From Reyranella sp. (GTDB lineage Bacteria > Pseudomonadota > Alphaproteobacteria > Reyranellales > Reyranellaceae): DNA of 32,000 bases. This document shows, piece after piece, positions 7,273 through 30,301 of the stretch. The DNA lies in contig NZ_OZ245801.1 in assembly GCF_965228225.1 (NCBI RefSeq), forward strand, positions 3,957,281 to 3,989,280. The letters run 5' to 3'. The notes under the pieces were generated by a model, which was not told the DNA's origin, searched no databases, and worked only from the letters and a program-made list of their open reading frames with translations. Position 1 is the stretch's first letter; each line of letters starts with the position of its first letter. The position numbers were made by a program, and so were the translations under genes.

Positions 7273-8016
7273 GTGTCACTCGATCGCTATCGTACCGCCA
7301 TCGTCACCGGGGCGAGCCGCGGCATCGGCGCGGCCGTCGTCCGCGAACTCACGATCGGCGGGCTCGACGTCTATGCCGTCGCCCGCTCGACCGAGGACCT
7401 GACGGAACTGGCGCAGGAAACCGGCTGCCGGCCGATGGCGCTCGACATCTCCCATCGCGACGCGGTGCTGAGCGCCCTGGGCGCGCTCGATGCCGACATC
7501 CTGGTCAACAACGCCTCGGCCCCGGTGCGCGGCGGCGTCTCGTGGGAGACCGCGCCCGACGACATCGCCACCCTGATGGACGTGAACCTGCGCGGCACGC
7601 TCAACTGCCTGGCCGCCGTCGTGCCCGGCATGCGGGGGCGCGGTCTCGGCCACATCGTCAATCTCGGCTCGACGTCGGGCACCTGGGCGCTGCCCGGCAT
7701 GCCGGTCTATGCCATGACCAAGGCCGCCATCCACAATCTCAGCCAGACGCTGCGCCTCGACCTGCACGGGTCGGGCGTGCGGGTGACCGAGATCTCGCCG
7801 GGCCGGGTCGAGACGGGCGCCCATCTCGGCCTGATGGAGGATCGCGAGGAAGGACGGCGCCGCTTCTACGAAGGCTTCGAGACGCTGCAGCCGACCGACA
7901 TCGCCGAGGCGGTCATGTTCGTGCTGGGCGCGCCGCAGCGCATGGATGTGAGCTTCATGGAGATCGTGCCCACCGACCAGTCGTATGGCGGCTCGCAATT
8001 CCATCGCCGGCGCTGA
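7273..8016 (+). CDS. SDR family oxidoreductase
   Basis: GTG 7273 preceded by AAGGAGGA (7261-7268). Has TAIVTGASRGIGAAV (TGxxxGxG) and YAMTKAA (YxxxK). Confidence 0.9.
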   Translation: MSLDRYRTAIVTGASRGIGAAVVRELTIGGLDVYAVARSTEDLTELAQETGCRPMALDISHRDAVLSALGALDADILVNNASAPVRGGVSWETAPDDIATLMDVNLRGTLNCLAAVVPGMRGRGLGHIVNLGSTSGTWALPGMPVYAMTKAAIHNLSQTLRLDLHGSGVRVTEISPGRVETGAHLGLMEDREEGRRRFYEGFETLQPTDIAEAVMFVLGAPQRMDVSFMEIVPTDQSYGGSQFHRRR

Positions 8017-8067
8017 AATCCGGCACGTCGCTTGCAGCGCGATCGTCCGTCTATCAATCAGGGAATC

Positions 8068-9579
8068 ATGGACCTCAAGAACCTCGCCGCCATCCTCGAC
8101 CCGCAGGCGCCGGCCGACCGCCCCTTCATCATCCAGGTTTCGCCCGAGGGCGACGAACAGCTGCGTCTGGGCTACGGCGAGGCGCGGCTGCGCATCGCCG
8201 CCCTGGCGCGCGGCCTGCTGAAGCGCGGGCTCAAACGCGGCGAGGCCGTGGCCATCGTCGCGGCCAACAGCGCCGACTATCTCGTGCTCTACATGGCCAC
8301 CATGGCGGCCGGGCTCGTGTCGGTCTGCGTCAATCACAAGCTGCCGCGCGAGACGGTGGCGCACATCATGACGGACTCGTCCGTCAAGCTGGCGATCGCC
8401 GACGCCGAGCGCGCGCCGCTGGTCGGTGCGGTGGTGCCGACCGTCGCGATGGAGGAACTCGACGGTCTGCTGGACGCAGGTCCGTTCGAGCCGGCCGACA
8501 TGGCGCCCGAAGAAGTCGCCATGATCCTCTACACGTCGGGCTCCACCGGCCTGCCCAAGGGCGTGCCGCTGACGCATGGCGGCTACCTCTGGGCGACCGG
8601 CGCCACGCCCGAGCAGCGGCCCGGCATCGAGGGCCAGAAGATCATCATCGCCGCGCCGCTGTTCCACATGAACGGCCTGTTCAGCGCCAAGATGGCGATG
8701 ATCAACGGCGGCACGATCGTGCTGATGACGAATTTCACCGCCCGCGGCTTCATCCGTGCCATCGACCGCAATCGCGTCGCGATGATCACCTCGGTGCCGA
8801 CCATGCTGGCGCTGGTGATGCGCGAGACGGAGGAACTGGCCAAGGCGGACCTCGGCTGCGTCACCACGGCGGTGACCGGCTCGGCGCCCTCGACGGCGGA
8901 ATTCTTCGAGCAGATGCACCGGATGTTCCCCAATGCCGAGACGGCCAACAGCTGGGGCACCACGGAGTCCGGCCCGCTGGGCTTCGGGCCGCACCCCGAC
9001 GGCATCGCCAAGCCCATGGGATCGCTGGGCTATCCGCGCGCCAACATCGAGGTGAAGTTCGTCGGCGGCGCAGAGACCGGCGCCACGCAGGGCGTGCTGC
9101 ACATCCGCACGCCGGCGCTGATGAGCGGCTATCTCAACCGCGAGGCCGACACGAAGAAGCGCCTGATCGACGGCTGGTACGACACCGGCGACGTGATGCG
9201 CCGCGACGAGAACGGCTTCGTCTTCTTCGTCGGCCGCGCCGACGACATGTTCCAGTGCGCCGGCGAGAACGTCTATCCGGGCGAGGTCGAGAAGCTGCTG
9301 GGCCAGCATCCCGACGTGGCCCAGGCCTGCGTCGTGCCGGTGCCGGACGAGATCAAGTACCAGCTCCCGGTCGCGTTCGTCGTCGCCAAGCCGGGTGCGT
9401 CACCGACGGAAGAAGCCTTGCGCCGTTTCGCCCTCGACAACGGTCCCGCCTACGCCCATCCCCGCGCGGTGTGGTTCGTCGACGAGCTGCCACTCGCGGG
9501 AACCAACAAGATCGACCGCAAGACCCTGGTCGACCGCGCCGTCGCGACCTACGCGCGCGACGGCGCGAAGCGTGTCTGA
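8068..9579 (+). CDS. AMP-dependent acyl-CoA synthetase/ligase
   Basis: AMP-binding signature YTSGSTGLPKGV, plus WYDTGD, GRADDM and C-terminal KIDRK. ATG 8068 is preferred over the TTG at 8032. Confidence 0.9.
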   Translation: MDLKNLAAILDPQAPADRPFIIQVSPEGDEQLRLGYGEARLRIAALARGLLKRGLKRGEAVAIVAANSADYLVLYMATMAAGLVSVCVNHKLPRETVAHIMTDSSVKLAIADAERAPLVGAVVPTVAMEELDGLLDAGPFEPADMAPEEVAMILYTSGSTGLPKGVPLTHGGYLWATGATPEQRPGIEGQKIIIAAPLFHMNGLFSAKMAMINGGTIVLMTNFTARGFIRAIDRNRVAMITSVPTMLALVMRETEELAKADLGCVTTAVTGSAPSTAEFFEQMHRMFPNAETANSWGTTESGPLGFGPHPDGIAKPMGSLGYPRANIEVKFVGGAETGATQGVLHIRTPALMSGYLNREADTKKRLIDGWYDTGDVMRRDENGFVFFVGRADDMFQCAGENVYPGEVEKLLGQHPDVAQACVVPVPDEIKYQLPVAFVVAKPGASPTEEALRRFALDNGPAYAHPRAVWFVDELPLAGTNKIDRKTLVDRAVATYARDGAKRV

Positions 9580-9582
9580 CTT

Positions 9583-9668
9583 GTCATCCTGAGCGCAGCG
9601 AAGGATCTCCCGCCAGCTACGCCGTTCTTTGGTCGTTCCGTGAGGTCCTTCGCTGCGCTCAGGACGAC
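9583..9668. repeat. REP-like palindromic element (GTCATCCTGAGCGCAGCGAAGGATC family)
   Basis: A 27-nt arm GTCATCCTGAGCGCAGCGAAGGATCTC (9583-9609) pairs with GAGGTCCTTCGCTGCGCTCAGGACGAC (9642-9668). Sits between convergent ligase and Bug genes. Confidence 0.85.
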
Positions 9669-9675
9669 ACCGATC

Positions 9676-10683
9676 TCACGAATCCGCCGTGAACCCGATC
9701 TTCTTCACGATCGGACCCCAACGGTCGTAGCTCTCCTTGAGGAGCGCACCGAGTTCCTGCGGGGTCGAGGACTTCACCTCGAGGCCCATGACGGCGAGGC
9801 CGTCGATCACGTCCTTCTGCGCGAGTGCGGCGCGCAGCGCTTCGTTCGCGCGCATCACGACCGGCGCCGGCGCGCCGCCCGGGGCGAAGAAGCCGAACCA
9901 TTCGGAGAAGACCAGGTCCTTGTAGCCCTGCTCGGCGAAGGTCGGGACGTTCGGTGCAAAGCGGCTGCGGGTCGCGCCCGAGACGCCGAGGAGGCGCGCC
10001 TTGCCGGCGGCGACCTGCTGGGTGAACTCGCCGACCGGGCCGGACACGGCCTGGATCTGGCCGCCGATCATGTCCTGCACCGCGGGCTGCGTGCCGCGAT
10101 AGGCGACATGCTTCAACTCGACGCCGCCCGCCTGGCCCAGCAGCACGCCGATGAAGTGCGGCACCGAACCGGAGGCCGGCGAGCCGTAATTGGCCTTGTC
10201 GGGGTTGGCCTTGCACCAGGCCAGGAACTCCGGAATGTTCTTCACGCTCTCGGGCACGGCCGGGCCGACGCAGAAGCCGAAGTCGAAGGTGCAGGCGAGC
10301 GTTACCGGCGTCACGTCGGTGAAGGCGTCGTAGGCCAGCTTCTTGTAGATGTGCGGATAGATCATCAGCATCGAGGCCGGCGTCTGCAGGATCACGCTGC
10401 CGTCGGTCGCCGCGCCCTTCATCGACTGGATGGCGATCTGGCCGCCGGCGCCAGGCTTGTTCTCGACGATCGCCATCTTCGTGTAGGAGGTGCCCTTCAG
10501 CCCCTCGGCGACGCGGCGGCACAGCGTGTCGGACGTGCCGCCCGGCGGGAATCCGGTGACGATGCGCACGGATTCGAGCGGCGCGGTGCCCTGCGCGCCG
10601 GCGCGGCCCGCGAGTCCCAGGGTGGCGAGCACTGCAGCAGCGCCCGAAGCGCGGACGAACCCGCGGCGGTTCTGGTCGTTCAT
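9676..10683 (-). CDS. Bug family (TctC-like) tripartite tricarboxylate transporter substrate-binding protein
   Basis: Internal ATG 10683 with GGGAGGA RBS. Tat-type signal MNDQNRRGFVRASGAAAVLA. Bug hallmarks IVTGFPPGGTSD, ENKPGAGG and GSPASGSVPH. Confidence 0.9.
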   Translation of the reverse strand: MNDQNRRGFVRASGAAAVLATLGLAGRAGAQGTAPLESVRIVTGFPPGGTSDTLCRRVAEGLKGTSYTKMAIVENKPGAGGQIAIQSMKGAATDGSVILQTPASMLMIYPHIYKKLAYDAFTDVTPVTLACTFDFGFCVGPAVPESVKNIPEFLAWCKANPDKANYGSPASGSVPHFIGVLLGQAGGVELKHVAYRGTQPAVQDMIGGQIQAVSGPVGEFTQQVAAGKARLLGVSGATRSRFAPNVPTFAEQGYKDLVFSEWFGFFAPGGAPAPVVMRANEALRAALAQKDVIDGLAVMGLEVKSSTPQELGALLKESYDRWGPIVKKIGFTADS

Positions 10684-10768
10684 CTCATTCCTCCCGGTCG
10701 GTTCTTGTGGGCGGAATGTCGCTGAAACGCGACGTGCCGCCAAGCCCAACCGACGCTTTCCGGCAGCA

Positions 10769-12133
10769 CTATTTGCGAATCGCCGCGTCGAGTTCGGGCA
10801 GGGGGAAGTCCTTCCAGCCCGCGACCTCGGAAACTTCCGGGAACTCCTCGCCGAACGGCTTGGTGGCATCGATTCCCACCGAGGACGAATAGCCGCCGTC
10901 GGTATAGGGATCGAGCGGCGCGGCGGCGGTGCGGTCGACGACGAAGACATCCTGGCTCGGCTTGACGCGGAACGACTGCGCCCATTCGACCTCGGCGGCG
11001 TTGCGGATGTCGATGTCGGGATCGACGGCGATCACCCACTTGGGATGGAGGTTGCCGGCCATGGTGGCGAGGATGGCCTGCCGTGCCTCGCCCTCGTAGC
11101 GCGGCTTCATGGCGATCACGACATAGGTCTGCACGCCGCCCGAGCTGTTGATCGAAATGTCCGAGAGGGTCGGGAACTGCGCCTGGAGCTGGCGCAGGAT
11201 CGAGGTCTCGAAGGGGATCTGCTTCAGGACATGGTTCTCGGTGATCGGCTTGCCGGTCAGCAGACCCTGGAAGATCGCGTTCCTGCGATGGGTTATCGCC
11301 GTGATCCGGGCGACAGGCTTGGGCGATGCCGGCGTGTAGTAGCCGGTATATTCGCCCAGCGGGCCTTCCATCTTCTGGGTCTTCGTATCGACGACGAACT
11401 CGATCACGATCTCGGCCCAGGCCGGCACCTTCAGATCGTTGCTGACGGCTTTGACCAGTTCGACCGGCGCGCCGCGCAGGCCGCCGGCGACGAACCAGTC
11501 GTTGGTCGCGTCGCTCGACTGCACCTGGCAGGAGAACATGGTGAGCGGATCGACGCCGATGGCGACCGCGCCGTGCAGTTCCTTCCCCATCGCGACGGCA
11601 TGGGCCATGTTCTTGCCGAAGCGATGGTTCGGCGCGGAAAACACGCCCAGCTCCCTCGGCCCATGCACCTGAAATCGGTAGTTGCCGATGTCGGGAATGC
11701 CGCTCTCGGGATTCTCCGACACCACGATCCCGGCAGTGATGTAGGGGCCGCCATCCTTGGGACTGTAGATCGGCACCGGCAGCTTGGTCACGTCGATCGA
11801 ATCGCCGGTCAGCACGACTTCCTGGCAGGGCGCCGTGCCCTTGAAGTCGACGGGACCCACCGGTTCGCCGATGCCATTCAGCACCCTGTCATGGATCGTC
11901 TGCTCGGTGGCCTCGAACGCCTTCAGCGCGAGCCGGCGGTTGCCGTAGACGCCGGCCACCAGCGGGAAGTCCGTCCCCGTCTGCGTGAACAGCAGCGCCG
12001 GCCCCTGGACCGCGCTCGTCCTGGCGAGCGCCCTGGCGATGTCGTACCTGGGCGAAACGGGACGTGCGATCTCGACGAGTTCGCCCGCATTCTTCAGTTC
12101 CGTCAGGAAGGCGCGCAGATCCTGATAGGGCAT
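10769..12133 (-). CDS. UbiD family (prFMN-dependent) decarboxylase, paralogue 1 (about 454 aa)
   Basis: N-terminus YQDLRAFLTELKNAGELVEI and core motif MEGPLGEYTGYY. ATG 12133 has GAGGA 10 nt upstream. The track start 12139 is a TTG. Confidence 0.9.
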   Translation of the reverse strand: MPYQDLRAFLTELKNAGELVEIARPVSPRYDIARALARTSAVQGPALLFTQTGTDFPLVAGVYGNRRLALKAFEATEQTIHDRVLNGIGEPVGPVDFKGTAPCQEVVLTGDSIDVTKLPVPIYSPKDGGPYITAGIVVSENPESGIPDIGNYRFQVHGPRELGVFSAPNHRFGKNMAHAVAMGKELHGAVAIGVDPLTMFSCQVQSSDATNDWFVAGGLRGAPVELVKAVSNDLKVPAWAEIVIEFVVDTKTQKMEGPLGEYTGYYTPASPKPVARITAITHRRNAIFQGLLTGKPITENHVLKQIPFETSILRQLQAQFPTLSDISINSSGGVQTYVVIAMKPRYEGEARQAILATMAGNLHPKWVIAVDPDIDIRNAAEVEWAQSFRVKPSQDVFVVDRTAAAPLDPYTDGGYSSSVGIDATKPFGEEFPEVSEVAGWKDFPLPELDAAIRK

Positions 12134-12171
12134 GGTCAATCCGTCCTCGCGGTTCTCGGGTACAAAGGGTG

Positions 12172-13191
12172 ATGCGCAGACTGTTCGCCGACATCCATCG
12201 CCACGACATCGAGGCCGCCGTTCGCGTCGCGGCGGCGGTGGGCCTGCCGCTGCTGGCGCTGGACGCGATCGGTCGTCTCGATCTCGCCGTCTATGCCGCG
12301 TTCGGCGGCCTGGCGATGCTCTATGGCCATAGCGAGCCGGCGAAGAAGCGGGTCGAAAGCCAGATCGTCGCCGGCACGGGCCTGGTCGTTACCATGGCGG
12401 TCGCCATGGCCTGGTCCGCCTCGCAAGCCCCTCTCGCGGTGCTGGGCGCGCTGCTCGTCCTGACCGTGATCGCGGCCGTCACACTCGGCTCCGCGATGCG
12501 CTGGATACCGCGCGGAGAGATGTTCTTCGTGCTGGTACTGCTGATCATCGCGGCCATTCCCACGAAATGGGAAAGCCTGCCGCTCGCCCTCGCCGTCGGT
12601 GCGGGCGGCGCGGCCTTCTCGGTGCTGCTGGCGGTGATCAACGGCATCGGCGCGCTGCCCGGTGAGGAGAAACCCGAAGGATGGCGACGGCGCATCGCTT
12701 CGGGCTATGCCGACCTCGACCGCCGCCAGCATCTGGTCGTGCTGGCGGCCGCTACGCTCGGCGTGCTCGCAGCGTGGTCCCTGGCCCTGGCCCTGGCCCT
12801 GGGCATCGGCCATCCCTTCTGGGCGGCCGTCACCGTCGCCGCCCTGATGCCGGCGCTGGCCGCGAAAGAGGTCTGGCGCCGTGCCGTCCACCTGATGGTG
12901 GGCACGCTCGGAGGAGTGGCCATCGCCGCCCTGCTGTTCTCCTTCGAACCCGGCCCTCTCGCGCTGATCGCCATCATCGTGATTTGCCAGGCGGTCGCCG
13001 AAATCGCGGTCTCGCGCAACTACGGCGTCGCCCTGCTCTTCTTCTGTCCACTGGCCATCGGCATGAGCAACCTGAGCCGCGGCGCTCCCTGGCCGCCCAT
13101 CCTGGTGGACCGGGTGGCCGAGGCCGCGCTGGGCGTGGCGGTCGCCTTCCTCACGATCTTCGCAGGCCGCAGGATCCTCAAGGTGACCTGA
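12172..13191 (+). CDS. FUSC / aromatic-acid-exporter (ArAE)-like integral membrane protein
   Basis: About 340 aa and almost entirely hydrophobic helices. Contains GHPFWAAVTVAALMP, resembling the conserved FUSC motif. Start is ATG 12172 (GTG 12169 possible). The 5' extension in the track overlaps UbiD. Confidence 0.7.
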   Translation: MRRLFADIHRHDIEAAVRVAAAVGLPLLALDAIGRLDLAVYAAFGGLAMLYGHSEPAKKRVESQIVAGTGLVVTMAVAMAWSASQAPLAVLGALLVLTVIAAVTLGSAMRWIPRGEMFFVLVLLIIAAIPTKWESLPLALAVGAGGAAFSVLLAVINGIGALPGEEKPEGWRRRIASGYADLDRRQHLVVLAAATLGVLAAWSLALALALGIGHPFWAAVTVAALMPALAAKEVWRRAVHLMVGTLGGVAIAALLFSFEPGPLALIAIIVICQAVAEIAVSRNYGVALLFFCPLAIGMSNLSRGAPWPPILVDRVAEAALGVAVAFLTIFAGRRILKVT

Positions 13192-13213
13192 ACGGACGGC
13201 CGGCACGCGGCGC

Positions 13214-13591
13214 CTACTGGTCGGAGACCTGAAAGGGGATGTCACCCGCTTTGGCCTTCGTCCCCTGCACCGTGATCACCGCCCAGTGCAGCACGTAGTT
13301 GCCGGGCGGCAGGGTCGGCGCAGCGGCGAACAGCACTTCCGGGGCCGATTCCAGACGCGGGTGCAGGCGCTCGATCACCTTGTCGCCCTGCTTGATGACC
13401 AGGGTCGACTTGATGTGATCGACCGGCCGGTCGAAGCGCACGAAGAAGGCGCTGCTCTTGAGGCCGATCCGGGCATGGGCCGCCGGTGTCGACTCGAGCA
13501 CGTGGACCTCGCCCGACGGTTGCTGGGCGCGCACCGCGGAAGTCATCGCCGCCATCATCAGGACGGCGATCGCCAGGCGTCGCGTCATCAT
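13214..13591 (-). CDS. exported CopC-fold domain protein (non-canonical, predicted metal ligands missing)
   Basis: Signal MMTRRLAIAVLMMAAMTSAVRA. Aligns by eye to CopC/YobA (HVLESTPA...VRFDRPV...LPPGNYVLHWAVIT...IPFQV). Its ATG overlaps the UbiX stop (ATGA). Confidence 0.65.
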   Translation of the reverse strand: MMTRRLAIAVLMMAAMTSAVRAQQPSGEVHVLESTPAAHARIGLKSSAFFVRFDRPVDHIKSTLVIKQGDKVIERLHPRLESAPEVLFAAAPTLPPGNYVLHWAVITVQGTKAKAGDIPFQVSDQ

Positions 13592-14211
13592 TTGCCGCTC
13601 CGGCGCTTGGCGAGGGACGGCTTCTCCACGCCGGAGGGGCCGCTCCATCGCGGGAAGGTCTTGGTGTCGAGGCCGAACAGGTCGAGCACGCGCGCGACGG
13701 AATGCGTCACGATGTCGTCGACCGTCCTGGGCCGCGTGTAGAAGGCCGGCGACGGCACCGCGACGATGGCGCCCATCTCGGTGACGGCCAGCATGCTCTT
13801 GATGTGGCCGGCATGCAGCGGCGTCTCGCGGAACATCAGTACGACCCGCCGGCGCTCCTTCAGGCAGACGTCGGCGGCGCGGGAGACGAGCCCCGAGGTC
13901 ACCCCCGTCGCGATCTCGCTCAGGGTGCGCACCGAGCACGGCGCCACGATCATGCCCATCGTCTGGAACGAGCCGCTCGAGATCGACGCGGCAATATCGC
14001 CCGGCGCATAGACGTGATCGGCCAGCGCGCGCAGCTCCGAGGCCGACACATCGGTTTCGAGCGAGCGCGTCTGGTCGCCCGCCTTCGAGATCACGAGATG
14101 GCTCTCGATCTTCAGCGCCCGCAGCGCCTCGAGCACGCGGATGCCGTAGACCGTCCCCGACGCGCCGGTGATGCCGACCACCATGCGCCGAACGGGTTCG
14201 CTTGCTGCCAT
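13588..14211 (-). CDS. ubiX: UbiX family flavin prenyltransferase
   Basis: 207 aa. Has VVGITGASG, MGMIVAPCS and the LKERRRVVLMFRETPL pattern. RBS GAGGA overlaps the upstream stop. The track ORF is 5'-extended through UbiD2 in another frame. Confidence 0.92.
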   Translation of the reverse strand: MAASEPVRRMVVGITGASGTVYGIRVLEALRALKIESHLVISKAGDQTRSLETDVSASELRALADHVYAPGDIAASISSGSFQTMGMIVAPCSVRTLSEIATGVTSGLVSRAADVCLKERRRVVLMFRETPLHAGHIKSMLAVTEMGAIVAVPSPAFYTRPRTVDDIVTHSVARVLDLFGLDTKTFPRWSGPSGVEKPSLAKRRSGK

Positions 14212-14222
14212 TTTGATTGTCC

Positions 14223-15851
14223 TCAGCCGCCGGTCTTGATGTGGCGCGGGTCCGAGTGGTTCAGCGGCGCAGGCTTCGCCTCCCACGAGAACGGTGTGTC
14301 GGAGAGCGTGTAGCGGTACCACGGCGGATCGTTGCTGCGGCCGAGCCTGTGCCGCAGGTTGCCGAAGGCGCGGTAGAGCACCGGATAGGGCTGGCCGTGA
14401 TACTGCTTCAGGATGTCGTGCCAGGCGCGCGGCTCGGCGCGGATGAACGCCTCCATGTCCCCGGTCAGCTCGTCTTCCGTCATGATCTTCAGCCCGGCCG
14501 GCGGATCGCCGAGGTCGGTGACGGTGCTGCGCACGAACTCGTTGGGGTTCCACTCCGGTCCCAGCGGCACCGTGCAGTCCATGCCGATCTTGGAGGAAAT
14601 GCCGAGCGTCGTGCTCTTGGGATCGACGGTCATGGTGTTGAGCCCGTCGAGGCGCACCGTGTCCTTGTCCGGCATGTAACGGTAAGCCATGGCGGCCAGC
14701 ACGGCCTGGTCGTCCCAGATGTCGACGTCGGTGTCGAACACCATGGCGATCTTCGGAAGTCCCTGCTTGGAACAGGTCAGCATGATGCCCAGCGCCTGCT
14801 TGGAATCGCCGGCCCCCAGCGGATGGATCTTGGCGTAGGCGATGTTGGACAGGCCGCCCAGCGGACAGCGCACCTCGCGCACGTCGATGCCGCCCTGCTT
14901 CAGCCCGTTGAACAGGTCGGCCTCGATCGCCGGCAGCTGCAGCATGTTGTCGGTGTACCAGGGATGCAGCCCGCCGATCGTGCAATGCTGGAAGATGCCG
15001 CCCTTGCGGTAGGTCATCGCCTTCACCTTGAGGCGATAATTGTGCTTGATGCCGCCGCCGTACATGCCGGTGAACTCGCCGTACGGGCCCTCGTCGTAGA
15101 CCAGCCCCTCCAGCGCCATCAGCTCGCACTCGAGCACGATCTCGGCATTGGCCGGCACCATCACGTCGATGGTCTCGCACTTGATCATCTTCGCCGGCGC
15201 GCCGTAGAAGGCGCCCAGCACCTCGAAATCGTCGGTGTCGGTGGTGACGCCGACCAGCGCCGAAATCTTGTCGATGGTCGGACCGCCCAGCACGATCGCG
15301 ACCTCGAGATTCTGCCCCTTCGCCGCCGCCGCCATCGCGTGGATGCGCTGGCGGTGCGAGGTGCAGGTCATGTCGACCGACTTCTCGTTCTTCGTCCGGA
15401 ACATCGAGCGGTAGATGCCCCAGTCGTAGACGCCGGTGTCGGGATGCTTGCTGATGAAGAGATTGTCGTTGGTGTAGGCGTGGCCGTCGCGATCATGGTG
15501 CAGGAACAGCGGCAGGCGGGTCAGGTCGACATCGTCGCCCTTGAGGATCACCTCCTTGCAGGGCGCCGTCGTCACCGTCTCCCACTTCACCCGGCCCTTG
15601 GAGCGCGCCACCATCTCGAGGCCGGTCCGCGTCTTGTCGCAGCCCATGGCCCAGGCGAACATCTCCTGGTTGGAATAGGCGTTGGCCAGCACCGAGAACT
15701 CGGTGTCCTTGATCTTCTCGATCAGGACGGCCTTGGTCGGATTGGCCTCCATGAGCTTGGGAACCTGATCGACTCGCACTTCGTCGGTGATGCGCACGAG
15801 GAAGCCCGCTTTGTCCATCGCGTCGACAAAGTCGGAAAGGGACTGCTGCAT
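14223..15851 (-). CDS. UbiD family (prFMN-dependent) decarboxylase, paralogue 2, long form (542 aa)
   Basis: UbiD-like N-terminus MQQSLSDFVDAMDKAGFLVRI and core YDEGPYGEFTGMYGGG. Carries about 85 extra C-terminal residues relative to paralogue 1. ATG 15851 is preferred over 15905 because 15905 would overlap the upstream gene. Confidence 0.88.
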   Translation of the reverse strand: MQQSLSDFVDAMDKAGFLVRITDEVRVDQVPKLMEANPTKAVLIEKIKDTEFSVLANAYSNQEMFAWAMGCDKTRTGLEMVARSKGRVKWETVTTAPCKEVILKGDDVDLTRLPLFLHHDRDGHAYTNDNLFISKHPDTGVYDWGIYRSMFRTKNEKSVDMTCTSHRQRIHAMAAAAKGQNLEVAIVLGGPTIDKISALVGVTTDTDDFEVLGAFYGAPAKMIKCETIDVMVPANAEIVLECELMALEGLVYDEGPYGEFTGMYGGGIKHNYRLKVKAMTYRKGGIFQHCTIGGLHPWYTDNMLQLPAIEADLFNGLKQGGIDVREVRCPLGGLSNIAYAKIHPLGAGDSKQALGIMLTCSKQGLPKIAMVFDTDVDIWDDQAVLAAMAYRYMPDKDTVRLDGLNTMTVDPKSTTLGISSKIGMDCTVPLGPEWNPNEFVRSTVTDLGDPPAGLKIMTEDELTGDMEAFIRAEPRAWHDILKQYHGQPYPVLYRAFGNLRHRLGRSNDPPWYRYTLSDTPFSWEAKPAPLNHSDPRHIKTGG

Positions 15852-15876
15852 TGTCTGACCCGAATGAAGAGGAAAA

Positions 15877-16302
15877 TCAGGAATAGGCCGGTGCGGTCCT
15901 GCCATGCTCGGCGAAGGCCCTGAGGTGATGCAGCATCATGCCCCAGAGGGCATTGCACTTCTCGAAGTTGCCCTTCTGATGCGGCCAGCCGGAATGGGCG
16001 AAGGTGAGATGGACCCGGCCGTGCGGCGTCTGGCCGAGATGGAACGAAACGCTGGTGCCGGCCGCATCGCCTGGCCCGTCGACGCACTTCCAGACGATGG
16101 CGTCTGCTCCCTGCGACGCGACTTCCCAGACGAACTTCGGTCCGTCGGCATATTTCAGGGTCCACTGGCTCCCTACGCCCGCGCCGCCCGAGACCTCGGC
16201 CATGGTCCAGCCCTTGAGCCCCTGGAGGGTCGTGAGGGCTTCATGGACCTTGGCGGCATCCGCCTTGATGTTGACGGCGTGACGAAGAGCGTGATCGGAC
16301 AC
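15877..16302 (-). CDS. SRPBCC superfamily (AHSA1 / polyketide-cyclase-like) protein
   Basis: Pattern ...HAVNIKADAAKVHEALTT...GLKGW... is typical of AHSA1-type SRPBCC domains. GTG 16302 has GGGAGG 6 nt upstream. The track start ATG 16332 is the alternative. Confidence 0.7.
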   Translation of the reverse strand: MSDHALRHAVNIKADAAKVHEALTTLQGLKGWTMAEVSGGAGVGSQWTLKYADGPKFVWEVASQGADAIVWKCVDGPGDAAGTSVSFHLGQTPHGRVHLTFAHSGWPHQKGNFEKCNALWGMMLHHLRAFAEHGRTAPAYS

Positions 16303-16445
16303 AGTGCACCTCCCGAAAACCTTATCTGCCACGCGGGAATAGCGCGGCTAGCATGTGCGGCGGGACCTTATCAGTCAGGCTGAAGCGTTCAACTTCGAGC
16401 GTCCGGCCGAGCGAATACCGGCTTCCGAGGCCCCGAGTCCGCTCG

Positions 16446-16474
16446 TTGCGCAGCAGAGCCCCCTCCGGTATGTT
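16446..16474 (+). promoter_or_regulatory. candidate sigma70-type promoter for tRNA-Arg
   Basis: TTGCGC (16446-16451), a 17-nt spacer, then TATGTT (16469-16474), ending 10 nt before the mature tRNA 5' end. Confidence 0.35.
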
Positions 16475-16484
16475 CCGCCGCGCT

Positions 16485-16561
<77 letters not shown>

Positions 16562-16769
16562 TTTTACCCTTTGGAATCAATCTAATGCCCTCGGTGCTTT
16601 TGCACGGATCGGGCAGAGCGGCGCCACAAGAACCCTCGCGCGCTGGGGTACATCGCCGAGACGCGCGTTGTGACTCTGTTCCTTGCAACGAACCCCGTTC
16701 ACCTCTTATTGGCAGGTGATGTCTTCACCCTCTCCTCCTTTTGGATCGGCGGTTCACGCCGTTCCATGA

Positions 16770-17513
16770 GTGCACTTGGGGAATGTCAGTTTGATGTTTG
16801 GTTCTGCGTATTTCCTTGCAGGCGATTCGTTTCTCAAGAACACGGCTGTCGAGGATGCACTCCGGCCGCGGCTTGCGCCGTTCTTCTCGAACTGGATCGG
16901 CAGAAAGGAGATCAGAGTTCGGAGCGAGGAATCGCAATCGAACCTCACTGTATCGAAGCGCGTCGCCCTGTTGGAGAAACTGGTTCCAAGCAATGAGGAA
17001 GCAGGGCAGCAAGTCCTGATTGGAAGATCATCCGGCGGACGCGTGGCGTCTTTGTTTGCCATGCATCGGCCGGTTAAGGCGGTCATTTGCTTTGCTTACC
17101 CGTTCCGCCATCCGCGGAGTGTCCTGGAGCCGCTTCGCTTCAGCCACCTGGCCCATATCACGGTGCCGACGCTGATCTTCCAGGGGATGCGGGATAGTTA
17201 CGGAGCAATGGACATCACCGAGAACTACGCTCTTTCACCGGCTGTAACCGTAAGATTTGTAGACACCGACCACGATTTTGATTTGTCACCGTCCGAGTGG
17301 GACGTGGTTGCCCGGAAGGCAATGAAGTTCCTGGACAGCGTTGGGCAACGATTGCCGGCTGAGGGGTCGCGTTTCGACGAGGCCTTCTACCGGAGCACTC
17401 ATGCGGATGTGGCGGCGGCGATCGCCGCTGGGGAGTTCGTCTCCGGTGAACATCATTTCAACGTGAAGGGACGTAGTCAGGGGCGACGCTTCCGGCTTCT
17501 GGCCGACACTTGA
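16770..17513 (+). CDS. alpha/beta hydrolase (KANL3/Tex30-like family) with extra C-terminal module
   Basis: Core VLIGRSSGGRVASLF...CFAYPFRHP...VPTLIFQGMRDSYG...DTDHDF. Low GC and non-host codon usage (AGA, GTA, TTT). GTG start is uncertain and the usual N-terminal HGAG region is not evident. Confidence 0.7.
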   Translation: MHLGNVSLMFGSAYFLAGDSFLKNTAVEDALRPRLAPFFSNWIGRKEIRVRSEESQSNLTVSKRVALLEKLVPSNEEAGQQVLIGRSSGGRVASLFAMHRPVKAVICFAYPFRHPRSVLEPLRFSHLAHITVPTLIFQGMRDSYGAMDITENYALSPAVTVRFVDTDHDFDLSPSEWDVVARKAMKFLDSVGQRLPAEGSRFDEAFYRSTHADVAAAIAAGEFVSGEHHFNVKGRSQGRRFRLLADT

Positions 17514-17619
17514 GATTCTAGAATTTGGTCAAGGTCGGACGGTCGGCAGTGGTCCAGATGGTGCGTTCAGCACCATGGGGCGGCTGTTTCATCGGAAGCG
17601 TTGGGGTGCAAGCGGCGAC

Positions 17620-17643
17620 GCCGGGGCCCCGCAGGGCCCCGGC
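17620..17643. terminator. GC-rich hairpin between convergent genes (possible bidirectional terminator)
   Basis: Perfect 10-bp stem GCCGGGGCCC/GGGCCCCGGC with loop CGCA. No U-tract on either strand. Confidence 0.4.
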
Positions 17644-17654
17644 ACAGCGGCAGG

Positions 17655-19262
17655 TCAGAGACCGTGGTCCTCCCGCATCATCTCGGCGGCGCGTTCGCCG
17701 ATGACGGCGCAGGGGGCCTGGGTGTTGCCGGTGGTGACCCGCGGCATGATCGAGCCGTCGGCCACCCGCAGCCCGCTGACGCCGTAGACACGCAGCGTCG
17801 CGTCCACGACCGACATGTCGTCCCGCCCCATCCGGGCGGTGCCGCTCTGGTGCCAGTAGGTGACGGCGGCGTCGCGGATGTAGGCGTCGAGGTCCTCGCC
17901 CTTCACCTCGCCCGGCATGGCTTCGCCGGTGACGAAGGGACGGAAGGCCTGGGCGTTACCCAGGGCGCGGCAGAGCTCGATACAGGACGAGGCCGCCGTC
18001 ATGTCCCTGGCGTCCGACAGGAAGTTCGCGTCGATCGCCAGCGCCGCGGTCGGATCGGCGCTCTGCAGGCGCAGGCGTCCCCGGCTCTCGGGGTGGGCGA
18101 GGCCTGCGAACATCGTCCAGCCGTGGGCCGGCACGCCGCGCAGCGCCGTGCGTTCGCTCGGCACCGGGAACTCGACCTGGCAGAACAGCAGGTCGGGCGC
18201 GTCGAGGTCGGGCCGGCTCTTCCAGTACATCGTCGCCTCGCTGCCGCTGTTGCGGGGCGCCAGAGGCTCCGACAAGGCCCAGGTACAGCCGAAGGACACA
18301 TGGTCCTGTAGGTTGCGCCCGACCCCCGGCAGGTTCTGCACGAGCGGGATGCCGAAGCGCTCCAGCTGGCGACGCTCGCCGATCCCGGAATGCATCAGGA
18401 CCTTCGGCGTCTGGAGGGCGCCCAGCGACAGCACGACTTCCGTCCGCGCGCCGATGGTCATCGTCCGTCCGCCCTGCACGAGTTCGACCCCGGTCGCCCG
18501 CGTGCCCTGGAAGACGACCCGCTTCACGAGCGCGCCGGTGAGCACGGTCAGGTTCGGGCGATCGAGCCAGGGATGGACATAGGCGCGGTACAGCGACTGG
18601 CGGCGCCCGTCGCGCACCAGCATGTCGGTGATCGCCGCACCGCCCTCCTGCTCCATCATGCGCCCGTTGGGATGGTCGAACACGGGGATGTCGAGTTCGC
18701 GCGCGGCGTCGAGCATCGCGAGCGCGAGCGGGCTCGGCGAGGCAGCGGGCTGCACCCAGACCGGCCCTCCGGTGCCGCGATAGGCGGGGTCGGGATGGCC
18801 CTGCCAGTCCTCGATCCGGCGATAGAGGCCGAGCACGTTCTCGTAGCCCCAGCGCGGATCGCCTGCCTCCGACGCGAAGAACTCCCAGTCGCTCTTATGT
18901 CCCCGGGCCCAGACCATCACATTGATGCTCGACCCGCCGCCCAGCCCCTTGCCCATGGACATCGGGATCTCGCGGCCGTTGAGATGAGGGTTGGGTTCGG
19001 CCCGGAATCCCCAGTCGCGTTCGCCGCCGAGATTGGTGGGCCACAGGGCCGGGTTGAGGACGGCTTCGGCATCGTCGCTGCCGCCCGCCTCGAGCAGCAG
19101 GACCTGGACGTCGGCATTCTCGGCCAGCCGCCGCGCAATCACCGACCCGGAGGAGCCGGCGCCGCACACGATGAAGTCGTAGCCGGGCCGAAGCGCCGCC
19201 GTCAGCCGCGCCTGGTTCTCCCGCCCGCGCCGGACGGAGTCTGAAGCATCATAGTCGTTCAT
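17655..19262 (-). CDS. GMC family FAD-dependent oxidoreductase (choline-dehydrogenase-like)
   Basis: 535 aa. Has DFIVCGAGSSGSVIARRLAE (GxGxxG) and GMC signature GKGLGGGSSINVMVWARG. C-terminal active-site region includes YWHQSGTARMG. Confidence 0.92.
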   Translation of the reverse strand: MNDYDASDSVRRGRENQARLTAALRPGYDFIVCGAGSSGSVIARRLAENADVQVLLLEAGGSDDAEAVLNPALWPTNLGGERDWGFRAEPNPHLNGREIPMSMGKGLGGGSSINVMVWARGHKSDWEFFASEAGDPRWGYENVLGLYRRIEDWQGHPDPAYRGTGGPVWVQPAASPSPLALAMLDAARELDIPVFDHPNGRMMEQEGGAAITDMLVRDGRRQSLYRAYVHPWLDRPNLTVLTGALVKRVVFQGTRATGVELVQGGRTMTIGARTEVVLSLGALQTPKVLMHSGIGERRQLERFGIPLVQNLPGVGRNLQDHVSFGCTWALSEPLAPRNSGSEATMYWKSRPDLDAPDLLFCQVEFPVPSERTALRGVPAHGWTMFAGLAHPESRGRLRLQSADPTAALAIDANFLSDARDMTAASSCIELCRALGNAQAFRPFVTGEAMPGEVKGEDLDAYIRDAAVTYWHQSGTARMGRDDMSVVDATLRVYGVSGLRVADGSIMPRVTTGNTQAPCAVIGERAAEMMREDHGL

Positions 19263-21122: not shown

Positions 21123-22037
21123 ATGTCGCGCCTGCTGCTCAATGAACTCGACGCCGTGGTCGCGATTGCCCGTGCGGGCTCGTTCCGCGCCGCCGCGCAG
21201 GGGCTCGGCATGTCGACGACGGGGCTGAGCAATGCCGTCGCGAAGCTGGAGGCGCGCGTGGGCGTGCGCCTGTTCAACCGGACGACGCGCAGCGTTTCCC
21301 TGACCGATGCCGGCCGCGCTTTCGTCGAACAGGTGAGTCCGGCCCTGCGCGACATCCATGGCGCCCTCGACGCCGCCCGCTCCCGGCAGGCCACCCCTTC
21401 CGGGACGCTGCGCATCAATGCCTTCGCCGCCGGCGCCCGTGAGATCATTTCCCCGCTCGTTCTGGCGTTTCTGCGCCGCCATCGGGAGGTGCACGTGGAT
21501 CTCGTGACCGAGGGCCGGCTGGTCGACATCGTCGCCGACGGATTCGATCTCGGCCTGCGCCGGGCCGACCTCGTGCCTGCCGACATGATCGCCGTGCCGC
21601 TCGGCCGGCCGCAGCGCCATGCCGTCGTTGCCTCGCCCGCCTACTTCGAGCGGCAGGGAAAGCCGGGCGTGCCGACGGATCTCGCGCGGCATTCCTGCAT
21701 CCGGACCCGTCTGCCCAACGGGGCGCTGTTCAGATGGCACTTCGAGAAGCGCGGCGAGACGGTCCAGATCGAGGTGACGGGTCCGATCACGCTGGACGAA
21801 GCGAGCCTCGCCCGCGTCGCCGTCCTGGACGGTCTCGGTATCGGCTACTTCCTCGAGCAGGATGTGCGCGACGACATCGAAGCCCGGCGCCTCATCCGTG
21901 TGCTCGACGACTGGACGCCGCCCATCGCCGATCTCTGCCTCTACTATCCCGGCCGGCGCAATCCATCGGCCGCTCTCAAGGCCTTCATCGCGCTGGCCCG
22001 CGAACTCGGCAGGAAGAAGGGGCGCGAAGCGGGCTGA
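21123..22037 (+). CDS. LysR family transcriptional regulator
   Basis: 304 aa. N-terminal w[51 protein letters not shown] plus a LysR substrate-binding-domain layout. Confidence 0.92.
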
Positions 22038-22163
22038 TCGTCCGCATTAAACCAAGGTATGGGCCGGCCACCCGAACGCTCAGGACCGACAACCTTACGG
22101 GCGATGCACATCCGATCGCCGAACGCGGTACGCAGCGTCAACCTGATATCGGGAGGCTGCAGC

Positions 22164-23141
22164 ATGTGTCTGGAACATCTCCGTCGCTTCGGGCGCAAGA
22201 CGGGGGCCATGCAGGTCGCAGCGCTCGCCCTTGCCTGCGCGATCGCCATGACAGGCCCAGCCCGCGCGCAAGCGCCGGGCCCACGATTCGCGGAGTCAAA
22301 CGAAGCTCCGATGCCCGTCGTCACGGCGTCGGCGGCCCTGCGAACCGTGCCAGTCTATCTGAAGAGCGTCGGCACGGCCGTCGCCAGCAGGACCACCGTC
22401 GTTCGCAGCGCGGTCGACGGCAAACTCACGGAGATCGACTTCACGGCGGGTCAACGGGTGGTGGCGGGTGATCTTCTCGCGCGGGTCGAGGCGCGCGCCG
22501 ATCAGGCTCGGGGGGAGCCGGACGCCACCGAAATTCGCGCGCCCGCGTCGGGCATGGTGGGAGGAGCGCTCCGGCATGTCGGAGACAGGGTTTCTCCCGG
22601 GGACGAGACAGGCATCGTCACCATCAGCCGCACCGATCCCATTTCCGTCGTCTTCGCCCTGCCGGAGGCGATGCTTCGCGCAGTCCGGGAGAGGCTGCTC
22701 CAGGGCAGCCTTCCGGTGAAGGCCTATGATCACGACAAGGTCCATGCCCTGGCCGTAGGTCACCTGCGGCGCGGTGAGCAGGAGTCCCAACAGGGGACGG
22801 ATAAAGGTGAACTGGTGGCCACGTTCGAGAATGCGGATCGCGCATTGTCCCCCGGCATGCGCGTCGACGTGCTGGTTCCCGCACATGCGACACGCACCGC
22901 CCTTGCCATACCCCTGGCCGCGGTGCGGCGTTCCTCCGCGGGCTACTACACCTACATGGTCACGAGGCACGCAACGGCTCACGTCCGACCGCTCACCCTG
23001 GGAATCGTCACCGGTGATTTCGTGGTCGTCCGCGAAGGACTGCGGCCCGGCGACGTGATCGTGACGGACGGCCAGGAACAACTGACCGAAGGAAGCCACG
23101 TCGCGATCGTCGAGGGTCCGTCACCCAGACCATCGGAGTGA
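22164..23141 (+). CDS. efflux RND-type periplasmic adaptor (MFP/HlyD family) subunit, alpha-hairpin-less
   Basis: ATG 22164 with GGGAGG 7 nt upstream. Signal peptide ...ALACAIAMTGPARA. Lipoyl and beta-barrel motifs are present (VDGKLTEIDFTAGQRVVAGDLLARVE; EIRAPASGMVGG; FENADRALSPGMRVDV). Confidence 0.75.
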   Translation: MCLEHLRRFGRKTGAMQVAALALACAIAMTGPARAQAPGPRFAESNEAPMPVVTASAALRTVPVYLKSVGTAVASRTTVVRSAVDGKLTEIDFTAGQRVVAGDLLARVEARADQARGEPDATEIRAPASGMVGGALRHVGDRVSPGDETGIVTISRTDPISVVFALPEAMLRAVRERLLQGSLPVKAYDHDKVHALAVGHLRRGEQESQQGTDKGELVATFENADRALSPGMRVDVLVPAHATRTALAIPLAAVRRSSAGYYTYMVTRHATAHVRPLTLGIVTGDFVVVREGLRPGDVIVTDGQEQLTEGSHVAIVEGPSPRPSE

Positions 23142-23326
23142 CCAACGGGCTGCCCGTTCAGGAGCGCTTTTGCGCTTCTTGATCGGGGGCGCGTGACCTA
23201 GACTCGTTCCACTACGTTGCAAGCGGTTCACCCGGCAGGGGCCCGAGCGTTCTCGAGGGCAGCGATCGCTCTTCGATCCTCAGCGAAACCCACGCCTTCG
23301 GCGGGGCAACAGCAAAGGGCACCCTC

Positions 23327-23956
23327 GTGGCTCCGACATTCCTCAACCACTTCTTCTACGAGTTCGTCACCCTGATCGTGATCCTCGATCCGGTGGCCAC
23401 CGTGCCGATCTTCCTGATGGTCACCGCCGGGCTGCCGCGGCGACAGGCGCTGCTGGTCGCGGCCTATGCGGTGGGAGTCGCGTTCCTGATCATGCTCTTC
23501 TTCATCCTGGTCGGCCGGCCACTTCTCTCGGCGCTCCACATACCGATGGCGTCGTTCCAGCTTGCGGGTTCGCTGATCCTGTTGCTGTTCGGGCTGAAGA
23601 TGGTGCTGGGCAAGGTGACCGAGGAAGCCGCCTCCCTGCCGCCGGATGCGACTCCGCTGCAACGCGCCGTCTTTCCCCTCGCCGTTCCCGGAATCGCCGG
23701 CGCGGGGGCAATCCTCACGGTCGTGCTGCTGACCGACAACACTGTGCGCTCGTTCGGCGAGCAGGTCACGACGACGGCGATCCTGGCCCTCTGCCTCTCG
23801 CTTCTCTTCGTGTCCTATGCGTTGGCAGGAACCCTCGTCCGCCTGCTCGGCAAACCCGGCATCGAGATCGTGAGCCGGGTCTTCGGCCTCATCCTGTCGA
23901 GCATCGCCGTCACCGGACTGGTGATCGCCATCAAGCTGAGCTTCGGTCTCGGCTGA
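23327..23956 (+). CDS. MarC family (UPF0056) integral membrane protein
   Basis: 209 aa, GTG start. N-terminal FVTLIVILDPVATVPIFL and multiple TM helices are typical of MarC/YhgN proteins. Confidence 0.85.
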   Translation: MAPTFLNHFFYEFVTLIVILDPVATVPIFLMVTAGLPRRQALLVAAYAVGVAFLIMLFFILVGRPLLSALHIPMASFQLAGSLILLLFGLKMVLGKVTEEAASLPPDATPLQRAVFPLAVPGIAGAGAILTVVLLTDNTVRSFGEQVTTTAILALCLSLLFVSYALAGTLVRLLGKPGIEIVSRVFGLILSSIAVTGLVIAIKLSFGLG

Positions 23957-28713: not shown

Positions 28714-28720
28714 GGCGGCC

Positions 28721-29417
<697 letters not shown>

Positions 29418-29425
<8 letters not shown>

Positions 29426-30176: not shown

Positions 30177-30301
30177 CGGCTCTCCCTGTGTCGCGAATAA
30201 ATCGAAGCTTTGAGCCGCTGTCCAGCACTGGCGTCGCGTTCGACAGATGGATAGATTTCCGATTACTGAAAACGGGGAAAAACATTGGGAGGATTAAAAC
30301 C

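Follow-up and report, generated by a model that had tools for sequence, protein, structure and literature searches.

UbiD enzymes matter for reversible aromatic (de)carboxylation and for CO2 fixation; to our knowledge, only a handful of UbiD subfamilies have known substrates, and activation often fails for want of helper proteins. VdcCD, LpdC-LpdB-LpdD and PhdA-PhdB-PhdC each combine a UbiD with a UbiX and with a small protein encoded beside the UbiD gene; PhdA is a stand-alone Mycolicibacterium decarboxylase that acts on a microbial metabolite, phenazine-1-carboxylate. The accessory proteins known so far are mutually unrelated: VdcD is a zinc ribbon that serves as allosteric subunit, phenylphosphate carboxylase has a small subunit of its own, LpdD is a chaperone of reduced prenylated flavin mononucleotide (prFMNH2) with a proteasome-assembly-chaperone (PAC)-like fold, and PhdC is an HpaC-like maturase (PMC8379154, PMC10865409, PMC13040415). 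In PpcABCD and the anaerobic benzene and naphthalene carboxylases, two divergent UbiD paralogues occur together with a small protein, and in the HmfF/HmfG system of Cupriavidus basilensis a UbiX is encoded near the UbiD. Here we describe a locus of Reyranella sp., at positions 9676–16302 of a stretch of 32,000 nucleotides (contig NZ_OZ245801.1, positions 3,957,281–3,989,280; called the window throughout), that encodes two UbiDs (UbiD1 and UbiD2), one UbiX and a small SRPBCC protein. The locus holds a genuine UbiD module that is conserved, mobile and so far uncharacterised; its centre is the SRPBCC-UbiD2 pair, not UbiD1, the TctC receptor or the GMC oxidoreductase found near it. This is carried by gene content, co-localisation across phyla, association with mobile elements, intact catalytic residues, an Asp/His/Asp metal site and purifying selection.

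The window has a GC content of about 67%, and genes were chosen by third-position GC and homology, with starts refined from homologues and ribosome-binding sites. Seven genes fill positions 9676–16302, in the order TctC, UbiD1, FUSC_2, CopC-like, UbiX, UbiD2 and SRPBCC, and all lie above the Pfam gathering threshold. The UbiD2 operon is tightly spaced on the minus strand: an SRPBCC/AHSA1-type protein of 141 amino acids (aa) (15877–16302; AHSA1 29.2 bits against a cut-off of 22.1) is followed after 25 nt by UbiD2, a putative UbiD-family (de)carboxylase of 542 aa with three UbiD domains (14223–15851; central domain E 9e-50), and, 11 nt beyond the end of UbiD2, by UbiX, a flavin prenyltransferase of 207 aa (13588–14211; Flavoprotein E 1.4e-39; NF004685 242.8 bits against 188; TIGR00421 231.8 bits against 108.9), which is the sole tblastn match to UbiX within the window. 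UbiD1, a second putative UbiD-family (de)carboxylase of 454 aa with UbiD_N, UbiD and UbiD_C domains (10769–12133, minus strand; central domain E 2e-60), stands head-to-head with the plus-strand FUSC gene (12172–13191), which itself sits between two minus-strand gene groups. The two diverge from an intergenic region of 38 bp (12134–12171, read directly from the sequence), and the term back-to-back used in a preliminary description of the window has to be corrected accordingly. Sigma-70-like promoters were not found in 9400–17700, where the promoter and terminator scan gave nothing above shuffle expectation. The same preliminary description had proposed an uncharacterised module of two divergent UbiDs and one UbiX with receptor and FUSC genes, both UbiDs keeping the EGPxGE core. 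This part stands: the core is present in both, the two UbiDs are 28.5% identical to each other, and the best match of either in the PDB, PtHmfF, reaches 34% identity for UbiD1 and 27% for UbiD2, so that neither is orthologous to an enzyme of known structure. Neither UbiD clusters tightly with characterised orthologues in a matching context, and the genes are syntenic in relatives.

To define what belongs to the module, we compared 165 related loci (cited by L numbers where one must be singled out), searched with the proteins of the window, partner proteins taken from other phyla and a profile of SRPBCC; frequencies refer to the 95 loci of the UbiD2 family whose flanks extend for 3 kb or more on either side. 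UbiD2 has an SRPBCC gene within 1.5 kb in 90 of them (95%), UbiX is found in 78 (82%) and a UbiD1-clade gene in 76 (80%). A FUSC homologue occurs in 45 (47%), nearly all from Alphaproteobacteria, where FUSC is always head-to-head with UbiD1. SRPBCC and UbiD2 are the invariant core, and UbiD1 (with FUSC) is a frequent but losable add-on. The preliminary description had given both UbiDs equal weight; of the two, only UbiD2 belongs to the invariant pair.

The order of these genes differs between lineages. Reyranella and Chelatococcus have SRPBCC-UbiD2-UbiX-(CopC) and then the divergent FUSC/UbiD1, while Ancylobacter and other Xanthobacteraceae have divergent UbiD1/FUSC and then SRPBCC-UbiD2-UbiX. 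Mycobacteria (Mycolicibacterium), Planctomycetes (Planctomicrobium, Singulisphaera) and Binatia carry a tight co-directional UbiD1-SRPBCC-UbiD2 operon, often accompanied by a divergent DUF2390-UbiX pair. In Pseudofrancisella the order is UbiD-UbiX-UbiD2-SRPBCC, and a subclade at 63–68% identity has SRPBCC-UbiD2 alone or with UbiX. The association is the stronger because gene order varies between lineages while the set stays together: co-localisation in five phyla or classes, with the order shuffled, supports a functional link between the two UbiDs, SRPBCC and UbiX. The genes flanking the module are unrelated from phylum to phylum, and the module is therefore self-contained. TctC, the acyl-CoA ligase, SDR, RidA and others are syntenic in one Reyranella sublineage only, CopC is restricted to Reyranella-group loci, and the GMC gene adjoins the module only in the window and in its closest relative, L001; TctC, CopC, the acyl-CoA ligase, the crotonase and the GMC oxidoreductase are lineage-specific neighbours. 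Further genes recur beside the module, namely those for DUF2390, Usp, an MBL-fold protein, Amidohydro_2, an ABM-transmembrane protein and DUF427; they too are lineage-restricted and make up no coherent pathway.

Two of these recurrent neighbours deserve a record of their own. In Actinobacteria, Binatia and Chelatococcus, the gene for the DUF2390 protein (about 175 aa), a further companion without characterisation, adjoins UbiX and points away from the UbiD1-SRPBCC-UbiD2 operon (L024, L051 and 14 actinobacterial loci, e.g. L053 at about 7500–8070; also L113, L124, L127–L130, L133, L136 and L148). The other protein, whose C-terminal multi-pass membrane domain is fused to ABM (antibiotic biosynthesis monooxygenase) domains, is encoded beside the module in five loci that represent four phyla or classes (L025, 8422–9390; L082, 11642–12604; L048, L051 and L068).

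The locus appears to be one copy of a horizontally mobile, self-contained module. Beyond the SRPBCC gene lies a tRNA-Arg(CCG) gene (16485–16561, plus strand; ARAGORN), which the preliminary description had missed. It is at once the boundary of the module and a breakpoint of synteny: homology to L001, L002 and L007 ends no more than 2 bp from the 3' end of the tRNA (16561–16563). It is followed by a segment of 1053 bp with lower GC (about 61%; 16562–17614), in place of which L001 carries a different segment of 1.7 kb; an alpha/beta-hydrolase (Abhydrolase_11) reading frame within it (16770–17513) has no tblastn match in L001. Taken together, 16485–17614 resembles an integration hotspot linked to a tRNA, or else what is left of an island, and the GMC gene is separated from the cluster by the tRNA and this variable segment. 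SRPBCC has the same tRNA-Arg as its neighbour in 11 loci of the Reyranella group and in one of Kaistia (L027). Elsewhere, the module lies between integrases (L086) or next to transposases (L082), and Methylobacterium nodulans carries it on plasmid pMNOD02, in the order SRPBCC-UbiX-UbiD2 with an IS5 element alongside (L171). The UbiD2s of Actinobacteria and Proteobacteria share about 70% identity, which we attribute to horizontal spread. On the M. nodulans plasmid, UbiX is split over two reading frames (L171, 6317–6873) and is probably a frameshifted pseudogene; the PLSDB table has no gene there.

UbiD2 is 99% identical to genes of Reyranella metagenome-assembled genomes and of 'Rhodospirillales bacterium 24-66-33', and its family is 62–99% identical across phyla. 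Its sources are Reyranella, Chelatococcus, Ancylobacter, Xanthobacter, Aquabacter, Neoroseomonas, Acidisoma, Pseudofrancisella, many Mycolicibacterium and Mycobacterium species, Antrihabitans, Singulisphaera, Planctomicrobium, Candidatus Binatia and soil metagenomes. In a library clustered at 50% identity the family comes down to essentially one full-length representative, the next full-length relatives being 33–39% identical, and in a neighbour-joining tree it is an isolated long-branch clade. UbiD2 scores below the general TIGR00148 cut-off and reaches no NCBIfam equivalog cut-off, and its closest PDB match is PtHmfF, at 125–129 bits and 27% identity. Two remote relatives (P0295 and P0303, 33–39% identical and sharing part of the C-terminal extension) were followed up and set aside: they occur without SRPBCC or a second UbiD and gave no functional lead. 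An AF2 model of UbiD2 (pLDDT 79.5) matches UbiD structures at E 1e-31 to 1e-35. It also has a C-terminal extension of about 100 aa, with confident helices at residues 459–502 outside the UbiD fold, and this helical extension has no counterpart among solved UbiDs. UbiD2 is under purifying selection (omega 0.04–0.11).

The SRPBCC protein starts at a GTG codon behind a GGGAGG ribosome-binding site, in agreement with the consistent 141-aa length of its homologues, which form a narrow family with many invariant Trp, His and Cys residues. Its AF2 model (pLDDT 84.8) has a helix-grip fold and superposes on 2m89, a Colwellia Aha1-domain dimer (30% identity), with TM scores of 0.75/0.84 and an rmsd of 2.0; a profile search matches the same structure at E 5e-19. 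The next structures are DynU16 and CalU16, from enediyne gene clusters, and the plant PR-10/PYL ligand receptors. By analogy with VdcD, LpdD and PhdC, SRPBCC is probably an accessory partner of UbiD2, but it differs from all three in kind: it has an SRPBCC helix-grip fold and is neither a zinc ribbon (Cys4), a PAC-like chaperone nor an HpaC-like reductase. LpdD and PhdC were considered as homologues and rejected, as they have other folds. Our literature searches on UbiD with SRPBCC returned no description of this module or of any UbiD-SRPBCC link.

UbiD1 is 94% identical to a Reyranella protein and, like UbiD2, reaches no NCBIfam equivalog cut-off; the models for VdcC, MqnL-type proteins, UbiD, PpcA/B and BagN were all tried as identities for the two UbiDs and all score far below cut-off. 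Its clade contains the alphaproteobacterial UbiD1s, the partners from Actinobacteria, Planctomycetes and Binatia (about 50% identity) and further relatives at 60% identity. Since some of the latter (P0239, P0219) occur in other clusters without UbiD2, UbiD1 alone is not diagnostic of the module. One such cluster (L084, 5134–12695) also has two UbiDs: beside the UbiD1 relative it encodes a MarR, a UbiX, a second UbiD of the Asn/Glu type (481 aa), a TRAP transporter (DctPQM), an FAD monooxygenase and a TctC. It adjoins a recombinase and a transposase and is another uncharacterised aromatic-acid cluster.

Judged by their residues, both UbiD1 and UbiD2 look catalytic. Every member of both clades has Arg, Glu and Glu aligned with PtHmfF R152, E254 and E259, so that the Glu-x4-Glu pattern is invariant; in UbiD2 these are Arg148, Glu254 and Glu259. 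The metal site is unusual. We take the ligand roles to map from Fdc1 N168/H191/E233; on this basis, both clades have Asp/Asp in the ligand columns of PtHmfF N147 and E210 (Asp143 and Asp208 in UbiD2), where the metal bridging the prFMN phosphate is bound. Of 116 diverse UbiDs, 92 have the Asn/Glu pair and 5 have Asp/Asp, all five being members of these two clades. Because the nearest outgroups of UbiD2 have Asn/Glu, the change looks convergent. The resulting Asp/His/Asp set, whose His column was unstable in two larger alignments, would be a variant of the metal site and not its loss, as Asp can still bind metal. In Pseudofrancisella aestuarii, a partner UbiD 26% identical to UbiD1 (L087, 5935–7296) is retained in the operon with UbiX-UbiD2-SRPBCC. 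Its metal and catalytic positions, elsewhere Asn, Glu, Glu and Glu, hold Lys, Cys, Gln and Thr, with QGKWGT instead of EGPxGE; this partner is apparently a UbiD pseudo-enzyme that the operon has not lost.

We give about even credence to the reading in which each of the two UbiDs is a prFMN (de)carboxylase in its own right, within a UbiD2-centred module; the substrate class, the direction of the reaction, the role of SRPBCC and the independence of the two enzymes are what we infer. UbiX would make the prenylated flavin, its single copy feeding both UbiDs, and UbiD1 and UbiD2 would act in series or in parallel on a hydrophobic (hetero)aromatic carboxylic acid, for example on the two carboxyl groups of a dicarboxylate or on an acid and its product. 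SRPBCC might serve UbiD2 as an allosteric subunit, cofactor chaperone or ligand carrier, in analogy to VdcD, LpdD and PhdC, and FUSC may move the acid across the membrane. Non-oxidative (de)carboxylation of an acid of this type, drawn from the environment, is proposed because of the hydrophobic-ligand fold of SRPBCC, the HmfF- and HudA-like specificity positions and the membrane and small-molecule companions, among them FUSC_2 proteins of at least two divergent types, and the presence of two enzymes suggests a dicarboxylate or two related acids. Since no catabolic genes travel with the module, conversion or detoxification of an exogenous acid is more likely than a full degradation pathway.

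In the column of PtHmfF His296, UbiD2 has an invariant or nearly invariant Asn, and the columns of Arg304 and Arg331 hold Ile and Ser. The Asn coincides with Asn318 of HudA (PA0254), a pyrrole-2-carboxylate decarboxylase to which the UbiD2 fold aligns with a TM score of about 0.64, and Asn318 has been implicated in heteroaromatic substrate recognition (PMC7976604). UbiD2 nevertheless scores only 66 bits against HudA, which is dimeric, belongs to the Fdc branch and has no SRPBCC partner. Nor is UbiD2 close to the enzymes with accessory proteins: it reaches only 83 bits against PhdA (7pda), and the VdcC model NF041204 gives 276 bits for UbiD1 and 205 for UbiD2 against a cut-off of 650. A further difference from those systems is the second UbiD that usually travels with the UbiD2-SRPBCC pair. 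Xanthine-8-carboxylate decarboxylase (XCDC; LA1_0150 of Cupriavidus sp. LA-1; PMC12391406) was rejected as the identity of one of the UbiDs on a comparison of cluster content alone: the lumazine dehydrogenase, the amidase-signature isomerase and the pterin deaminase of the XCDC cluster were not found with the present module.

The separateness of the two enzymes is argued in part from losses. Three independent deletions, with different breakpoints, removed UbiD1 and FUSC (in two of the three also CopC) in close Reyranella relatives, and in each case SRPBCC-UbiD2-UbiX and TctC were kept. In window coordinates the deletions span 10753–13177 (L001), 10750–13587 (L005) and 10785–13585 (L007); the corresponding sites in the relatives are at 12680–12766, 12264–12276 and about 10480, respectively. 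In all three loci the remaining SRPBCC-UbiD2-UbiX has an omega of 0.04–0.08. Furthermore, a second UbiD is missing from the neighbourhood in about 20% of the well-flanked loci and throughout one subclade, and UbiD1-clade enzymes in turn occur in other clusters without UbiD2.

Several observations weigh against this reading. Absence of UbiD1, which extends to Xanthobacter, Aquabacter and Kaistia besides L001, L005 and L007, was judged at the locus, so that a copy elsewhere in these genomes is possible, and no regulator conserved with the module was found in the compared loci. The detoxification idea has as its sole basis the absent catabolic neighbours and the FUSC and MFS genes, and an MFS transporter lies beside the module once among the related loci. 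The rare Asp/Asp pair common to both clades suggests a co-adaptation closer than a shared pathway would entail, and the degenerate Pseudofrancisella partner fits a structural subunit better than an independent enzyme. Finally, the tight UbiD1-SRPBCC-UbiD2 operons in three phyla fit a complex as well as they fit a pathway.

A broader reading, which we entertain tentatively and regard as possible, would make SRPBCC-UbiD2 a new two-component class of prFMN enzyme. Such an enzyme would have the remodelled Asp/His/Asp site and use the C-terminal extension as a docking domain, recruit a second UbiD, catalytic or degenerate, into a hetero-oligomer, and spread on islands and plasmids. It would decarboxylate a toxic or signalling heteroaromatic acid, with SRPBCC as the first helix-grip prFMN chaperone or substrate-channelling subunit. 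The metal is possibly not Mn2+, one or two carboxyl groups may be removed, and the acid could be, for example, of the phenazine, picolinate or fusarate type.

A serious rival, though in our judgement less likely than two separate enzymes, is a single heteromeric prFMN (de)carboxylase built from UbiD1, UbiD2 and SRPBCC, the last being its small subunit. Beside the co-directional operons, it is favoured by deep splits that are congruent in both clade trees (Actinobacteria, Planctomycetes and Binatia against Alphaproteobacteria), by the restriction of the Asp/Asp pair to these two clades, by the retention of a degenerate partner UbiD in Pseudofrancisella, which is typical of a scaffold subunit, and by a C-terminal extension of UbiD2 that homomeric UbiDs lack. 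The described multi-UbiD carboxylases offer a precedent, in that they too have two divergent paralogues and a small protein; in the present family one lineage's paralogue is seemingly non-catalytic. However, UbiD2 has outlived the loss of UbiD1 and FUSC three times, intact and under constraint, and occurs without a second UbiD nearby in a fifth of the well-flanked loci; and in the window the two UbiDs belong to different transcription units that flank a gene on the opposite strand. The phenylphosphate carboxylase alpha and beta models (TIGR02723/TIGR02724) score 85–180 bits against cut-offs of 469–565, and no HAD gene that could supply the HAD-phosphatase subunit is conserved with the module. 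In a further difference from the known multi-UbiD carboxylases, the hosts are mostly taxa that we take to be aerobic.

It is improbable that UbiD2 and SRPBCC are a conserved helper which matures, stores or delivers prFMN for the second UbiD and does not itself decarboxylate a substrate. The idea would account for the difference in conservation (UbiD2 about 70% identical across phyla, its partner 26–50%) and for partners that can come from different UbiD clades. Diverse prFMN chaperones that are still unidentified are expected in the literature (PMC10865409), and the Trp-, His- and Cys-rich conserved set of SRPBCC could line a flavin-sized pocket. Yet UbiD2 keeps the invariant Glu-Arg-Glu set and SRPBCC-UbiD2 occurs without a second UbiD nearby, which together make a helper role less likely, and in Pseudofrancisella degeneration has affected the partner and not UbiD2.

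The preliminary description had also heard in this locus an echo of the hmfF-hmfG-hmfH'-hmfH system for furan-2,5-dicarboxylate, with UbiD1 as HmfF, UbiX as HmfG, TctC as HmfH' and GMC as HmfH; we consider this very improbable. PtHmfF (6h6v) is the top structural and sequence match of both UbiDs, the comparison with HmfF being made through it, and for UbiD1 the match reaches 244 bits. UbiD1 also has the His at the PtHmfF His296 position that has been called key for furan specificity (numbered H297 in PMC7976604), relatives carry the label 'FDCA decarboxylase 1' from JGI auto-annotation, and a Bug receptor and a GMC oxidoreductase are present in the window. But the 34% identity of UbiD1 to PtHmfF is about the same as its identity to E. 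coli UbiD (33%; VdcC, 31.5%), and the neighbour-joining tree leaves both UbiD1 and UbiD2 outside the PtHmfF/AnInD branch. The columns of PtHmfF Arg304 and Arg331 hold Phe and Gln in UbiD1, which is weak evidence against the assignment, these residues being putative distal-carboxylate ligands. Asp/Asp replaces Asn/Glu as metal ligands, UbiD2 has an extra C-terminal domain, and UbiX is in the operon of UbiD2, not of UbiD1. The furoyl-CoA genes, already reported missing, were indeed not found in the window: no hmfABCDE genes occur there, nor do they recur in the genome-derived related loci. The published hmfFG survey covered only genomes that carry hmfABCDE (PMC8091172). Lastly, the two remaining members of the proposed set do not belong to the module: TctC is confined to one Reyranella sublineage, and GMC adjoins only in the window and L001, past the tRNA where synteny breaks.

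FUSC is a half-size FUSC_2/ArAE-family membrane protein of 339 aa, its start set from 35 homologues, with a single FUSC_2 domain at residues 205–328 (75 bits against a cut-off of 25.6; E 6.5e-21). AaeB-type FUSC/ArAE exporters are full-length two-repeat proteins of about 650 aa with a membrane-fusion partner, whereas the present FUSC is half that size and has no adjoining HlyD-type gene. Divergent FUSC_2 members also adjoin the module in L086 and L073. TctC (9676–10683, minus strand; 335 aa; PF03401, E 3.7e-55) is a periplasmic solute receptor of the TctC/Bug family, with a TAT_signal match of 16.5 bits, below the cut-off of 22.7. It is placed after UbiD1, or after UbiX/CopC where UbiD1 has been deleted. 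Unlike the receptor of the tripartite tricarboxylate transporter (TctABC) it is an orphan: as already noted in the preliminary description, neither TctA nor TctB is found among the window reading frames scanned with Pfam. The CopC-like protein (13214–13591, minus strand; 125 aa with a signal peptide) passes the Pfam CopC cut-off (29.6 bits against 23.3), while the NCBIfam CopC/YobA equivalogs give 22–26 bits against cut-offs of 95–129. Its start and the UbiX stop overlap in a 4-bp ATGA (13588–13591). A periplasmic protein is in this way translationally coupled to a cytoplasmic UbiX, and there is no obvious reason for a copper-chaperone-like protein there.

Further away, the GMC, LysR, acyl-CoA ligase and crotonase genes listed previously are all in the window; an MFS gene, also listed, was not found among its Pfam-scanned reading frames. 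The other transport genes seen are a Liv-type ABC system (27832–31528) and MarC. At 21123–23956 a LysR regulator, a weak HlyD_3-like membrane-fusion match below threshold and the MarC-family membrane protein stand in a row. This recalls AaeR/AaeA-type aromatic-acid efflux, but without an adjoining FUSC gene. Next to it, at 23961–26087, lies a large membrane sensor adenylate/guanylate cyclase (GAF/dCache-HAMP-cyclase, 708 aa).

Altogether, the SRPBCC protein is a candidate for a fifth, structurally new class of UbiD accessory protein, and its partner belongs to an orphan UbiD subfamily whose conservation at about 70% from Actinobacteria to Proteobacteria implies a specific, selectable function. 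The rare Asp/His/Asp cofactor-anchoring metal site, present in two co-located clades, is an opening for study, and hosts of the module can be cultured (Reyranella massiliensis 521, Ancylobacter aquaticus DSM 101, Mycolicibacterium wolinskyi ATCC 700010 and Methylobacterium nodulans ORS 2060). With partners that are intact in some lineages, deleted in others and degenerate in one, the module offers a natural test case for whether two UbiDs work as one complex.

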